Positions 17,093 to 22,965 of a stretch of 64,000 nucleotides of DNA are shown here, in pieces (the stretch's first letter is position 1; each line of letters begins with the position of its first letter). The notes beneath the pieces are model-generated. The model searched no databases, was not told the DNA's origin, and saw only the letters and a list, made by a program, of their open reading frames with translations. The position numbers were made by a program, and so were the translations under genes. The DNA comes from Candidatus Woesearchaeota archaeon (GTDB lineage Archaea > Nanobdellota > Nanobdellia > Woesearchaeales > UBA119), in assembly GCA_030156615.1 (NCBI GenBank), contig JASGME010000002.1:7085-71084 (forward strand), read 5' to 3'.

Positions 17093-17668
17093 TTAAAAAT
17101 CCTTTTTCTTCATAATGTACAGGATTGCAAAGATTCCTGTTATCACAATAACTTCTATTAATGCTCCAAGGATTGCGTATTTCCAAAGAGGAGGCTGACT
17201 AACGGATTCTTGGATAAGTTCTGCTGACCTAATCATAAGATCTGCTGATTCTAGTTCCACAGATGAAGCTGCCGGGGCATTTGCTAAAAAGCCATATATT
17301 GCAAGGGCAAGAGAAACAATACCAAAAGCAATAAGTATAGGAACAAGATGTTTAACAAAATCAGAGAATCCATTGTTTTTTGTCGGCACAATCAGGAATG
17401 CCTTTTTATTAAGACTATAATGTTCAATTTTCTTTCCTTTCTTTGAATAATGATAGCTGTCTGATTTGACAAGTCCGGCTTCTTTCAGTTTCGTTATGTT
17501 ATAATGAACTGTTGATAAAGGAACTTTAAGCTTATCCGCAATCTCCGATTCTGTTGCTTCCTTTCTCTTTGATAGAAAAGAGATTATTGATTTTGCACTC
17601 TTGCTATTGATTACAGGAAGCAATTCATTAAAATCTTCATCCAGAGAAAGCAAGATTATATCGCTCAT
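17093..17668 (-). CDS. Membrane-anchored winged-HTH (ArsR-like) regulator
   Basis: 'SIISFLSKRKEATESEIADKLKVPLSTVHYNITKLKEAGLV' HTH followed by two TM helices. First gene of the regulator–ABC ATPase–permease operon. Confidence 0.6.
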   Translation of the reverse strand: MSDIILLSLDEDFNELLPVINSKSAKSIISFLSKRKEATESEIADKLKVPLSTVHYNITKLKEAGLVKSDSYHYSKKGKKIEHYSLNKKAFLIVPTKNNGFSDFVKHLVPILIAFGIVSLALAIYGFLANAPAASSVELESADLMIRSAELIQESVSQPPLWKYAILGALIEVIVITGIFAILYIMKKKDF

Positions 17669-17820
17669 TTTGCGAACAAGCGATTAAAGAATATTTAAAG
17701 TTTTGGAAAATAATGCTATCGTTGATTTGAACACCTGATTTTTGACTTTAAAATTTAATATCAAAATGAATATAATATAAGCAAAACAAAAAATATAAAA
17801 AGAAGGGAATTATAATTCAT

Positions 17821-18040
17821 ATGATGATAAATTTGAGAATTGCTATAAGTTCAACTGGAAAAGATTTGGATGCAGATGTTGATTCAAGATTAAGGAGATG
17901 CCCCTTATTTTTTAATTGTTGAAATTGATGAAAACAATACCTGCCAGGAGCCAGAAAATATGAAAAGGAACATTCTTTTGTAGCATTTTTGTTAGGTGTT
18001 GGATTAGCAACAATAATTGTGGCAACTAAAATGTTAGGGT
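17821..18040 (+). pseudogene. Degraded NifX/NifB-family (dinitrogenase FeMo-cofactor-binding, DUF134-like) gene remnant
   Basis: Frame 1 reads 'MMINLRIAISSTGKDLDADVDSR...', matching the family N-terminus 'MKIAIASDDGK..VS.HFGR'. Frame 2 continues, after an in-frame TAA at 17891, with 'GDAPYFLIVEIDENNT', matching 'GRAPYFLIVD.E'. So there is a +1 frameshift near 17890, further stops at 17920 and 17981, and the body is truncated before the downstream phosphatase gene. Confidence 0.45.
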
Positions 18041-18043
18041 GAG

Positions 18044-18634
18044 ATGAAAGGGATGAAAGAATTGAAAATTTATTTGTTCAGGCATGGAAGGACATATTAT
18101 AATGAAAAAGGAATTTTTACTGGATGGAAAGATTCTAAACTAACTCCAAAGGGAATTGAAAATGCTAAAGAAATTGCTAAAAAATTAAAAGATAAAAAAT
18201 TTCAGGTTGCAATACATACTTCTCTTTCACGTTCTAAGGATACTTTAAAAGAAGTTCTTAAGTATCATCCTGAATGTAAAAAGATAATTCAGGATGACAG
18301 GATTATTGAGAGAAGTTATGGCTTTTTGGAAGGAAAAACACATAAGAAGATTATTGAGCAGTATGGAAAAGAAAAATATGACAAATGGCACAGGGCTTGG
18401 GATTATCCTCCAAAAGACGGAGAATCACTTAAGATGGTTGAAAAAAGAGTGAAAAAATTTATTTCATGGTTAAAAAAGTATATGAAAGAAAATAAGGTAA
18501 ATGTTGCTATTTCAGCTCATGGAAATTCAATAAGAGTTTTCAGAAAGATTATGGAAAATTTAACCATAGAAGAAACATGTTCATTAGAAATTCCTTATGA
18601 CAAATATTTTGAATACACTATAAAAGTTGATTAA
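18044..18634 (+). CDS. Histidine phosphatase superfamily protein (phosphoglycerate-mutase-like)
   Basis: 'LFRHGRTYYNEKGIFTGW' RHG catalytic motif and 'SAHGNSIR' second His block. Confidence 0.75.
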   Translation: MKGMKELKIYLFRHGRTYYNEKGIFTGWKDSKLTPKGIENAKEIAKKLKDKKFQVAIHTSLSRSKDTLKEVLKYHPECKKIIQDDRIIERSYGFLEGKTHKKIIEQYGKEKYDKWHRAWDYPPKDGESLKMVEKRVKKFISWLKKYMKENKVNVAISAHGNSIRVFRKIMENLTIEETCSLEIPYDKYFEYTIKVD

Positions 18635-19397
18635 GAAAATGAAAACACTAACAATACTCTCGGGAAAAGGAGGAGCAGGAAAGACAACCCTGTCTTCTAA
18701 TTTAGCAGTTCTCCTTTCAAATGAAAAGAAGATTGTTGCAGCGGATTGCGATGCTGATGCTCCAAATCTTAGTTTAGCATTAGGCATAAAGGAGAATGAT
18801 TTTTCTAAATGGGAAAGAGTTCAGACAAATGAAAAAGCTGTTCTTGATGAGGAAAAATGTGATGGATGTAAGAAATGCTTTTAGGTTTGTAATTTTGGGG
18901 CTATTTCTTGGGATGAAAAAAGGAACAGGCCAATATTTAATTCAATGTTATGTGAAGGATGTGGTGCTTGTCAGTTAGTCTGTCCTAAAAAAGCAATTAA
19001 ATTAGTTAAGGTTTACAATGGTAAGATTTGGGAAGCAGACACGAGATATGGTTTTCCCTTGTTTTCTGGTCAATTAAAGGTAGGTGCTACTGGCTCAGGG
19101 AAGATTTTCTCTTTAATAAAAGAGAAGGCTGAAGAGAGAGCTTTGAAGACTGCTGATCATTTTAGGATTCCTTACGGCATAGTCATTAACAAGTTTGATT
19201 TGAACATCGATTTTTCAAAAAAGATTGAGAGATTTGCAAAAAACAAAGGCATAGATATTCTTGGAAGGATTCCGTATAATAAGAAGATTGTAGAAGCTCT
19301 TGTTGAGCTAAAACCAGCAATTGAATACGACAAAACCCTTGAACCTATATTCAATGAAATTCTAAGCAATATTTTAAAAAAGCTTGAAGAGATATAA
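18627..19397 (+). pseudogene. MinD/Mrp-like P-loop ATPase with 2x[4Fe-4S] ferredoxin insert (MJ0578-like), interrupted by an in-frame TAG
   Basis: ORFs 18627..18884 and 18945..19397 are in the same frame and are separated only by TAG at 18882-18884. Reading through gives 'CDGCKKCF*VCNFGAISWDE...CEGCGACQLVCPKKAI', two intact CxxCxxCxxxC(P) clusters. The N-terminus is 'SGKGGAGKTT', the deviant Walker A of the family. Confidence 0.7.
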
Positions 19398-19510
19398 AGC
19401 AGGGTATGCATTTTTAAATTTTTAAATAAGAAACGAAAGATTAATAAATAATCATTATAATAATGACAATAAAACAATAAAAGAAATCTCAAAAAGAGAG
19501 GGGTTTAAGA

Positions 19511-19894
19511 ATGATAATAACTAAAAAGAGACCTTATAATGGGATAAAGAAGGAGTTATCTAAAAAAGATAAGATTGGGGTAATATCGTGCAATGCCTGT
19601 GCAAGAATGTGCAAAACAGGAGGCAGAGAAGCCCTTGAAGAGCTTGCCGGGAAACTAAAGAATGATGGATTTGAAGTCGTTGATATGGACCTCATAGGAA
19701 CACCATGCAATATTGATATGCTTCAGAAGAATCAATTGCATGGGAATGCTCAAGTGGCTCTCTGCTGTGATGCAGGCATAGAAAATCTAAAACAGATTTT
19801 TCCAAAGAACAAGATAATTCCTGCTTTGAAGACGATTGGATTAGGGGCATATAATAACAAAGGGAAAATATGGCTTATCAGAGAATTCAAATAA
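19511..19894 (+). CDS. Small Cys-containing hypothetical protein (CxxC...C...CC)
   Basis: 127 aa: 'GVISCNACARMCKTGG', 'GTPCNIDML', 'ALCCDAGIENL'. Possibly a metal/Fe-S-binding partner of the upstream module. No family recognised. Confidence 0.5.
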   Translation: MIITKKRPYNGIKKELSKKDKIGVISCNACARMCKTGGREALEELAGKLKNDGFEVVDMDLIGTPCNIDMLQKNQLHGNAQVALCCDAGIENLKQIFPKNKIIPALKTIGLGAYNNKGKIWLIREFK

Positions 19895-21287: not shown

Positions 21288-22253
21288 TCAGTCAAAACCT
21301 GAACTTGAACGGACTTCCAGCTGAGTTGATGTAGTATCAGAGTAATCATATTCAACCGTTATTGGAAGAACTTTCACATAATCACCTGCTGCTGAATCAG
21401 CTACCTCAATATTACATCTTACTGATACTAATCCGCCAGAGATTATTCTGGTTGCAAATGATTGACCTGCAGGAACACCATTACATTCTATATTGACTGA
21501 ATCCCATCCCCAATTCACAGGATCTCCTACTGTAACTCTCACCACTCCTTTTGAAGAAAACGAAGATGAGTCACAATCTTCTCCGAGTTTATATATTCCT
21601 CCATTTCCTACATGCTTAATTTCTATTGAAAGAGAATATCTGTTATCTCCTAAAGCCTTCTGAGTTACAGACGATATTTGAACAGGAGCTCCTGAGGAAT
21701 ATACTGGCCTTGCGCCGTTTGGATTACAAACTCTTGTATCGGTAGGATTCTCTGCTATGCAAATAACAGATTCTGCATTTGTTTCATAAGGATAACAAAT
21801 GTCAGCATAGATAGGCATATTCAATCTGGTGTTTATTGATGGAACATATTTAAGTGGGCCAAAAGAGACATCCGCTATATCTCCTGACACGACTTGATTA
21901 TCTATCTTATCTTTTCCTGAGAGTCCGGTATCAATAACCTTGCGCAGATCACTCTCCATTATACCAAAATCTCTATAAGAAAAGCCCGATAAAGAAACAA
22001 CTGCTGAATTCGGAGGGATATCATATTCCCCAAGATTTTCTACCCTCAAAGAAACGAAAATCTCGTTATTTCCTTGATCATATAAAACATAGCCTTCTTC
22101 AGGGATAATCCAGTTCATCACTAAGCCAGAAGTACCACCTATAAAACCGCTCTTGCTTCCTTCCTCGCCAGTTGGTTGAGTGCCGCATCCAGTTAATAGC
22201 ACTAATAGAACAAAAAGAATCCCTAGCCTATAGTATGATTTCATTATTTCCAC
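21288..22253 (-). CDS. Secreted putative lipoprotein (paralog family 1 of 3)
   Basis: Signal peptide ending in lipobox 'LLTGC'. Shares a C-terminal region with 23105..24028 and 24080..25045 ('...GAPVQISSV' / 'GQGAPVEFREV' / 'GQGAPINVVSV'). Confidence 0.6.
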   Translation of the reverse strand: MEIMKSYYRLGILFVLLVLLTGCGTQPTGEEGSKSGFIGGTSGLVMNWIIPEEGYVLYDQGNNEIFVSLRVENLGEYDIPPNSAVVSLSGFSYRDFGIMESDLRKVIDTGLSGKDKIDNQVVSGDIADVSFGPLKYVPSINTRLNMPIYADICYPYETNAESVICIAENPTDTRVCNPNGARPVYSSGAPVQISSVTQKALGDNRYSLSIEIKHVGNGGIYKLGEDCDSSSFSSKGVVRVTVGDPVNWGWDSVNIECNGVPAGQSFATRIISGGLVSVRCNIEVADSAAGDYVKVLPITVEYDYSDTTSTQLEVRSSSGFD

Positions 22254-22362: not shown

Positions 22363-22965
22363 TTATTTCTTTATCTTTTCATTTTTCTTCGAAGAATGTG
22401 CCAAATGTTTTAACTCCCCAATAGAAAAGTCCTTTAGTTTAAAGCTTTCATCTAAATCAAAATAGCTTATTGCACAAAAACCTGTCTTAAAATGAACATT
22501 TTCTTCTTCAGGCAAGCTTAAGAAAAGCATTATCAAATCAGAAATAAATCCTGCATGAGAAACGATTAACAAATTCTTTGCATTTTCTTTTTTTAACTTC
22601 TCACAAAATATTTTTGCTCTTTCATAAGCATCTTCTCTATTTTCCCCTCCTTCTGGTCTAAATTCATCTTTAGATAAGCCTGAATTTTCAATAGCTTCCT
22701 TAAATTCTCTATCAGATTTCCCTTCAAATATCCCTAACTCTTGTTCGTTAACATCTTGTGTATATTCTACAGAACATTCTTGATATCTTAATATTGGCTT
22801 TAATGTTTCTTTAGTCCTGTTCTTATATCCGCAAATTATTTTATCCAACTTTATTGTTTTAAAAAAATCTGCGGTTCTTCTCGCCTGCTCTTTTCCAATC
22901 TCAGTTAAACTATCCTGCTTTTCACAATGTCCTCTTTGACTATGCCTTAATAGATAAATTTTCAT
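22363..22965 (-). CDS. Histidine phosphatase superfamily protein
   Basis: 'IYLLRHSQRGH' RH(S/G) motif and 'VSHAGFI' second His block. Confidence 0.7.
   Translation of the reverse strand: MKIYLLRHSQRGHCEKQDSLTEIGKEQARRTADFFKTIKLDKIICGYKNRTKETLKPILRYQECSVEYTQDVNEQELGIFEGKSDREFKEAIENSGLSKDEFRPEGGENREDAYERAKIFCEKLKKENAKNLLIVSHAGFISDLIMLFLSLPEEENVHFKTGFCAISYFDLDESFKLKDFSIGELKHLAHSSKKNEKIKK

Follow-up and report, generated by a model that had tools for sequence, protein, structure and literature searches.

Positions 17821-19894 of a 64-kb window (the whole stretch of DNA that was analysed) from a Candidatus Woesearchaeota metagenome-assembled genome (MAG) appear to hold the wreck of a conserved anaerobe operon, a reading to which we assign a probability of roughly 90%. 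The operon would have encoded a NifX-like protein, two MinD-type ATPases with ferredoxin domains (MinD-ferredoxin 1 and 2), a ZIP-family metal transporter and a histidine phosphatase; what is left appears to be the 5′ end of the NifX-like gene fused to the 3′ end of the ZIP gene, the intact phosphatase gene and a MinD-ferredoxin 2 pseudogene. A preliminary description, made from the letters of the window alone, had proposed a decaying module of NifX-like and MinD-ferredoxin genes in this interval. The window is AT-rich (34% G+C) and carries archaeal neighbour genes, for example those of eRF1 and the RFC small subunit. Its 45 long open reading frames (ORFs) end with TAA (26), TGA (15) or TAG (4), and since TAG closes four of them the genetic code is standard.

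The 220 bp upstream of the phosphatase gene had been described as translating, in two frames, into the N-terminus and the following conserved block of a NifX-family protein. Both peptides were located in frames 1 and 2 of 17821-18043: frame 1 from 17821 reads MMINLRIAISSTGKDLDADVDSRLRRCPLFFNC up to a stop codon, and frame 2 reads GDAPYFLIVEIDENNT and continues. Blastn aligned positions 17834-17939 (106 nt) with the beginning of an intact NifX-like gene on a related contig at 85.8% identity (L008:3853-3957, E = 8e-29), and with that of a second NifX-like gene at 76.9% identity (L009:1038-1140, E = 9e-16). Tblastn of the protein encoded by L008:3852-4226 against the whole window found one place only, with a significant match in two segments and in the two frames expected (E = 6e-10), which supports the proposed frameshifted and truncated remnant. 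The sole indel relative to the L008 gene is one extra C in the C-run at 17901-17904, a +1 frameshift. Thus a +1 frameshift does join the two peptides, and the 'GDA' read at the joint is an out-of-frame reading; judging from the alignment, the ancestral peptide was …DSRFGRC running on into PYFLIVEID, that is, into PYFLIVEIDENN. The start placed earlier at 17821 did not hold. Alignment to intact genes begins at 17833 (TTG), and 17821-17832 is a 4-codon extension from an ATG without counterpart in intact NifX-like genes. The remnant proper therefore covers 17833-17935 on the plus strand, about 35 codons.

The products of the two intact genes matched by blastn carry the Nitro_FeMo-Co domain (PF02579), so that the remnant is homologous to members of this family. 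Scanned singly against Pfam, the two halves gave no significant PF02579 match; the frame-corrected fusion of the window allele matched profile positions 2-25 of 94 with 17.6-19.6 bits (E = 1.2e-3 to 4.8e-3), below the gathering cut-off of 26.3. The better-preserved allele of a related strain (L001) reached 26.0 bits (E = 1.2e-5), just under the cut-off. A homologue search with the fused 53-aa peptide gave no match, as none of the candidates had three 5-residue words in common with it. The complete domain (about 94 positions in a protein of about 125 aa) is not present at the locus, since the roughly 35 codons left are frameshifted and the rest is deleted. Taken by its sequence, 17833-17935 is the remnant of a PF02579 family member and not itself a member. 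DUF134 (PF02001), which had been used as a synonym of the NifX-like family, is a separate family that co-occurs with it.

The NifX assignment accounts for only part of the 220 bp. Its second half (~17936-18042), as had been overlooked, is the 3′ terminus of a gene for a ZIP-family metal transporter. It comprises about 35 codons on the plus strand and includes the original TGA stop at 18040-18042. Tblastn of residues 211-243 of the L008 ZIP protein showed 64% identity at 17941-18039 (E = 1.9e-7), and blastn matched window positions 17944-18038 to L008:5899-5993 (E = 1e-7). The C-terminus of the L008 protein aligns with the window peptide YLPGARKYEKEHSFVAFLLGVGLATIIVATKMLG, which runs to the stop codon. 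The L008 gene product matches PF02535 and ZupT, and its gene lies immediately upstream of MinD-ferredoxin 2. Only the C-terminal 33 residues are matched in the window; the other ~210 residues are absent at the locus. With the junction at about 17935 ± 5, the stretch upstream of the phosphatase is best interpreted as a fusion of the 5′ end of a NifX-like gene to the 3′ end of a ZIP gene.

Could an AT-rich spacer have translated by accident into a NifX-like motif? The separate halves lack a significant Pfam match and the window allele falls below the Pfam cut-off, as such an accident would have it. However, the resemblance extends to the DNA, where 106 nt share 86% identity with precisely the 5′ end of an intact NifX-like gene, the adjacent 95 nt independently match the ZIP 3′ end of the same operon, and the MinD-ferredoxin 2 orthologue downstream fits the context. 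We regard the probability of a chance resemblance as negligible.

Relatives of the locus were retrieved by searching with the conceptual translation of the downstream MinD-ferredoxin gene. Among them, two contigs of related genomes, L008 and L009, carry the intact canonical cluster in the order DUF134, NifX-like (123-125 aa), MinD-ferredoxin 1, a variable gene and MinD-ferredoxin 2, and so supply the intact NifX-like versions for which a comparison with relatives had been proposed. In a census of 35 related loci with at least 3 kb of upstream sequence, the MinD-ferredoxin orthologue was accompanied by a NifX-like gene in 28, by a second MinD-ferredoxin gene in 30 and by a DUF134 gene in 21. 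These counts bear out the earlier statement that NifX-like genes accompany MinD-ferredoxin ATPases. In L008 the positions that match the two sides of the fusion (3957 and 5899) lie on one strand, 1.94 kb apart, and enclose the rest of the NifX-like gene, MinD-ferredoxin 1, a 67-aa ORF and most of the ZIP gene. The simplest scenario, to which alternatives exist, is that a deletion of about 1.9 kb joined the NifX and ZIP ends and removed the first MinD-ferredoxin ATPase.

The gene downstream of the phosphatase (18639-19397, plus strand) encoded a second MinD-type P-loop ATPase with an inserted 2x[4Fe-4S] ferredoxin domain, of the COG1149 type and similar to Orp3/Orp4. Its best homologues are intact 299-aa proteins (E = 2e-146), and intact orthologues range from 299 to 301 aa. 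Pfam recognised CbiA and Fer4 in the conceptual translation (Fer4 E = 1.5e-11). The deviant Walker A motif is present (SGKGGAGKTT, residues 8-17 of the conceptual translation), and both CxxCxxCxxxC motifs are recognisable, the first being broken by an in-frame stop (C-D-G-C-K-K-C-F-stop-V-C). This TAG, at 18882-18884, stands where the ancestral codon was GAG (Glu): the window's TTT TAG GTT is TTT GAG GTT in L006, and relatives have E, D or K here. Aligned codon by codon with the intact gene of L006, the pseudogene also shows a 141-bp (47-codon) in-frame deletion, with its junction at 19139/19140 (feature 19130-19150). The deletion is flanked by the imperfect direct repeats GCTCTGAAAGAC and GCTTTGAAGAC, which encode 'RALK' twice, and the blastn segments overlap by 11 nt at the junction. 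That the junction sits between such repeats suggests that the deletion arose by slippage or by a microhomology-mediated event. The lost codons include the Walker B/switch II segment (hhhhDsxxG), and no continuous ORF of ~300 aa remains. The disruption reported earlier for this gene is thus confirmed, as a stop codon plus a deletion relative to intact orthologues, and on this evidence MinD-ferredoxin 2 reads as a dead gene. Its death is dated as recent, since L006 and L007, two short contigs of a different lineage with ~93% nucleotide identity to the window, belong to a lineage that keeps the gene intact. A search of metagenomes with the intact orthologue P0001 recovered no longer contig of this 93%-identical lineage. 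The ratio of non-synonymous to synonymous divergence (dN/dS) between the intact L006 gene and the window pseudogene is 0.11 (0.05 for the phosphatase gene), so most of this divergence would predate the inactivation.

Assemblies from five other samples (L001-L005), each encoding the exact phosphatase protein of the window, were compared with the window as a set of six strains; over the interval they are 97.4-99.0% identical to it. All six have the extra C, the junction of NifX with ZIP, the in-frame TAG and the deletion of 141 bp. Sequencing or assembly error, with the genes intact in the organism and the frameshift, stop and deletion all spurious, would find some excuse in the position of the frameshift in a CCCC run, a classic error site, and in the origin of the data from metagenome assemblies. 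The recurrence of all four lesions in assemblies from five other samples, which differ by 1-2.6% from the window, argues that they are not artefacts. L002 keeps the extra base although its C-run is broken up (GACTC). Moreover, the NifX-like sequence still comprises 35 of 125 codons after frame correction, and deletions of 141 bp and ~1.9 kb cannot be base-calling errors. An artefact is therefore extremely improbable; the resequencing test suggested earlier, a restored full-length ORF, had the opposite outcome in these five independent assemblies.

Some strains carry further lesions in the ATPase pseudogene: a 2-bp deletion at 18654-18655 in L002, L004 and L005, and a TCG to TAG change at 18661 in L003. 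These lesions bear on whether the broken frames might be recoded, through a programmed frameshift in NifX, through read-through of the TAG or its use for pyrrolysine, or through a MinD-ferredoxin that works as two separate parts, an 81-aa P-loop piece and a C-terminal one of 150 aa. The retention of Walker A and of all Cys codons of both ferredoxin motifs would suit such recoding, as would the few variable sites in the 3′ 190 bp of the pseudogene. The 150-aa ORF is called by gene callers and is 100% identical to the GenBank entry 'hypothetical protein PWQ87_106 [Candidatus Woesearchaeota archaeon]'. But the NifX frame stops after ~35 codons whichever frame is taken, the ATPase has lost its Walker B/switch II segment, and the 5′ piece has been hit again in the four strains just named. 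When the window is compared with L002, the pseudogene has a non-synonymous divergence of 0.029, about ten times the value of 0.003 in intact neighbour genes. TAG occupies a position of Glu, Asp or Lys and is an ordinary stop in this genome, and its recoding in MinD-ferredoxin 2 was rejected on the stop-codon counts given above. We consider recoding or a functional split very improbable, and continue with inactivation as the explanation of the broken frames.

The decay appears to be continuing. The NifX/ZIP remnant has 0.099 variable sites per base among the six strains and the MinD-ferredoxin pseudogene 0.053 (40 sites in 759 bp, plus private indels), compared with ~0.045 in true intergenic DNA and 0.007-0.013 in the phosphatase, ArsR-like, ABC ATPase, RFC and p127 genes. 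When pooled, 62 of 982 bp in the remnants and 37 of 3492 bp in five intact neighbour genes are variable (Fisher p = 1.3e-18), about a six-fold difference per base. Even the NifX motif varies, being FGR in L001 and L005 and LRR in the window, L002 and L003. These data are consistent with shared lesions that are fixed in the population and with remnants that drift neutrally while individual strains add lesions of their own.

Several observations weigh against the reading of a wrecked operon left to neutral drift. The within-population dN/dS of the pseudogene is 0.23-0.49 and not 1, and its synonymous divergence is 0.05-0.10 against ~0.02 in neighbour genes. The substitutions specific to L002 fall in two tracts, at 17997-18052 (~10 in 50 bp) and 19005-19208 (~22 in 200 bp), and the 590-bp phosphatase gene between the tracts has almost none. 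Such tracts exceed a uniform neutral clock and suggest recombination with a diverged lineage or a chimeric strain assembly; part of the polymorphism signal may thus be inflated, through recombination or strain mixing in the assemblies. The order of the ancestral genes is deduced from relatives whose orders differ (L008, L044 and L096), and a single deletion is only the simplest way to derive the present arrangement. Transcription of the phosphatase gene from the old promoter is an inferred step. Finally, tblastn against the 64-kb window found no other copy of the module genes, and this view is limited to the window.

The phosphatase gene itself (18044-18634, plus strand) is intact and encodes a His_Phos_1 histidine phosphatase of 196 aa, dPGM/CobC-like. 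It matches PF00300 with E = 7.4e-39 (133.9 bits against a cut-off of 21.7) and the NCBIfam pgm_1 subfamily model with 108 bits (cut-off 81.7); all equivalog models stayed below their cut-offs, so that the profiles do not distinguish a dPGM from an enzyme with another substrate. LFRHGRT is found near the N-terminus and SAHGNS later in the protein. The true start is probably the ATG at 18053, because alignments to relatives begin only at residues 4-9 and the codon at 18044 is GTG in L002. Among the six strains the gene shows 4 variable sites in 591 bp. A search of a genome collection with the phosphatase gave a best match of 73% identity, the window's own species not being among the matches. A second His_Phos_1 paralogue of 200 aa, 32% identical to the first, lies at 22363-22965 on the minus strand and appears to be decaying in the population as well: its frame is shifted after codon ~23 by a 5-bp deletion (22889-22893) in L001 and broken by a stop at codon position 24 in L003, and the window and L004 alleles have RHS in place of the catalytic RHG motif.

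Comparison with relatives indicates that the phosphatase gene is a native internal gene of the operon and not a foreign insertion. L006 and L007 carry the same phosphatase (97% amino acid identity), followed 4 bp later by the intact 299-aa MinD-ferredoxin 2. In L044 the order is NifX, MinD-ferredoxin 1, phosphatase, MinD-ferredoxin 2, with overlapping stop and start codons; in L096 it is DUF134, ZIP, phosphatase, NifX, NifX, MinD-ferredoxin 1, MinD-ferredoxin 2. The phosphatase also lies inside the module in L098/99, L012 and L014, and these loci, together with L010, L011, L017 and L052, provide further adjacencies of the phosphatase to the module or to ZIP. Module genes were found at 5 of the 8 closest phosphatase loci. 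The loss of the NifX-like and MinD-ferredoxin module put forward in the preliminary description is upheld in all its elements. The deletion of the first MinD-ferredoxin gene and the operon membership of the intact phosphatase gene had been overlooked, as had the fact that the intact and unrelated gene at 19511-19894, although within the coordinates described, lies outside the module.

Upstream of the remnant lies an AT-rich divergent intergenic region (17669-17832), which we presume to be the promoter region of the former operon. Because the phosphatase gene has no spacer of its own in relatives, it probably depends in the window on a promoter upstream of the NifX remnant. Continued use of that promoter would also account for the survival of the 5′ end of the operon and of the ZIP stop codon by the phosphatase start. 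The same dependence would favour the view that selection keeps the 220-bp remnant because it serves the phosphatase gene as a leader with regulatory function, a promoter or an upstream ORF, and so would the abutment of the ZIP stop codon and a GGGTGA Shine-Dalgarno-like motif on the phosphatase start and the invariance of 17830-17891 among five strains. Against such exaptation, the variable-site density of the remnant is the highest of all segments compared but one surface-protein gene (0.099 per base, with 0.046 in intergenic DNA), the 33-codon ORF is not conserved and has an earlier stop in L002, and neither an Rfam family (scan of 17600-19600) nor another known RNA element was found. Selective maintenance of the remnant therefore seems unlikely, and we retain passive decay as the preferred reading.

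The dPGM/CobC-like phosphatase and ZIP genes recur in or beside the DUF134/NifX-like/MinD-ferredoxin cluster in Woesearchaeota, Nanoarchaeia and one Bathyarchaeota MAG (L044:5952-8745, L096:450-4423, L098:2829-8891, L017:6804-8987 and L052:2456-3789), in some cases with stop and start codons that overlap. This recurrence inside an otherwise uncharacterised module is a modest lead to its function. We advance only as a rather doubtful proposal that the phosphatase is a functional partner of an archaeal ORP-like module and outlives it by capturing the operon promoter. If this were true, the locus would be a natural experiment in which a partner survives its module through promoter capture, and it would show a living DPANN population in the course of losing an 'anaerobe-specific' ORP-type complex, with intermediates visible at the level of strains.

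The following history would reconcile the above. The ancestral order, as deduced from relatives, would have been NifX-like, MinD-ferredoxin ATPase 1, a small ORF, ZIP, histidine phosphatase and MinD-ferredoxin ATPase 2, with genes that overlapped or lay close together and were transcribed from a promoter ahead of the first. The ~1.9-kb deletion would have cut the NifX-like gene off at codon ~35 and fused it to the final ~35 codons of ZIP, with loss of ATPase 1, and a 1-base insertion would have frameshifted the leftover NifX-like sequence. In ATPase 2, a GAG would have mutated to TAG, and 141 bp would have been lost in frame between the short direct repeats, taking Walker B/switch II with them. 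Within the old operon, purifying selection would now remain on the phosphatase only, and the phosphatase gene would most likely be transcribed from the old operon promoter, with the 220-nt remnant as its leader. If this history is correct, the module no longer works in the organism.

The interval ends with an intact gene for a 127-aa cysteine-rich protein (p127; 19511-19894, plus strand) of a DPANN-wide family. Its 57 homologues are 124-131 aa long (nearly fixed at 126-128) and 46-98% identical, none of them has a Pfam domain, and the cysteines C27-x2-C30-x3-C34, C66 and C86 are invariant. The gene has 5 variable sites in 384 bp among the strains. It was considered as a member of the module, as in L093 it follows MinD-ferredoxin 2, and was rejected since elsewhere it adjoins genes for 2-oxoacid:ferredoxin oxidoreductase and (ADP-forming) acetyl-CoA synthetase. 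The protein is a candidate uncharacterised Fe-S or redox partner.

On the other side of the interval, the divergently transcribed neighbour (17093-17668, minus strand) encodes an ArsR/HTH_20-type winged-helix protein fused to C-terminal transmembrane segments, and beyond it are ABC transporter genes (ATPase and ABC-2 permease); the arrangement points to a unit of transporter and membrane-anchored regulator. A 321-aa predicted lipoprotein-like protein with a signal peptide and Cys, and with no Pfam match, is encoded at 21288-22253 (minus strand). Its gene is the most polymorphic segment compared, with 127 variable sites in 966 bp among the strains, and its amino acid changes are patchy, notably in L001. 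The protein may sit at the cell surface, with diversifying selection or recombination acting on it.

For annotation, the 33-aa, 81-aa and 150-aa 'hypothetical proteins' of gene-calling pipelines are to be taken as pseudogene fragments and should not be counted as genes, and this woesearchaeon should not be credited with a NifX/MinD-ferredoxin (ORP-like) module in metabolic reconstructions. The locus offers a snapshot of operon shedding in a DPANN archaeon, in which an internal deletion spares the promoter and the needed gene and is followed by point lesions and then by strain-specific lesions. This is ordinary gene loss through pseudogenes and reductive evolution, cleanly documented and with little that is new in kind.

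Literature searches on COG1149, COG1433 and DUF134 yielded little. The closest characterised counterpart of the ancestral module is the 'orange protein' (ORP) system of D. vulgaris Hildenborough (Orp3/Orp4, DVU2103/2104; Orp8, DVU2108; Orp9/MrpORP, DVU2109). In the Desulfovibrio ORP complex, the paralogous ferredoxin-motif ATPases Orp3 and Orp4 co-purify with the PF02579-type protein Orp8 (PMC6345978); they obtain their Fe-S clusters from MrpORP, and their role is described as 'putatively involved in cell division' (PMC6345978; PMC3897727). Common to ORP and the ancestral module are two MinD-like ATPases, each with two [4Fe-4S] motifs, a PF02579 protein, adjacency of the genes and occurrence in anaerobes. 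The NifX-like protein of an intact relative also matches the C-terminal domain of the NCBIfam MrpORP model (E = 3.7e-11). The ORP-type co-location of the three gene types holds in relatives, and the window keeps remnants of two of the three. Unlike ORP, the module has an archaeal host and lacks control by sigma-54/OrpR; neither Orp5 nor an MrpORP fusion was seen, and its partners are DUF134 and DUF5320 and, in Woesearchaeota, also the ZIP transporter and the histidine phosphatase. The window module is moreover dead, with one ATPase deleted, the other a pseudogene and the NifX-like gene reduced to ~35 codons. The lost module would thus resemble the Orp3/Orp4/Orp8 complex, a likeness that is architectural and based on gene content.

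Similarity is also seen to the stand-alone NifX/NafY/NifB-C-like proteins of non-diazotrophs (COG1433; for example MJ0327, MTH1175 and TM1290), which share the N-terminal motif …IA…S…G…D…V…FGRCPYF…V…D. Outside nitrogenase biosynthesis the function of such stand-alone proteins is uncharacterised (PMC2954228). The NifX-like proteins of the intact relatives (123-125 aa) are of the same size class as these, whereas the window retains 24-35 of the ~94 domain positions, and these in a frameshifted state.

The pattern of damage resembles operon erosion in reduced genomes, where adjacent linked genes suffer independent lesions, remnants behave in a neutral-like manner and the needed gene is kept. DPANN genomes are usually described as compact and with few pseudogenes. 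In contrast to that picture, intermediate stages of decay are visible at this locus and are polymorphic among co-existing strains.

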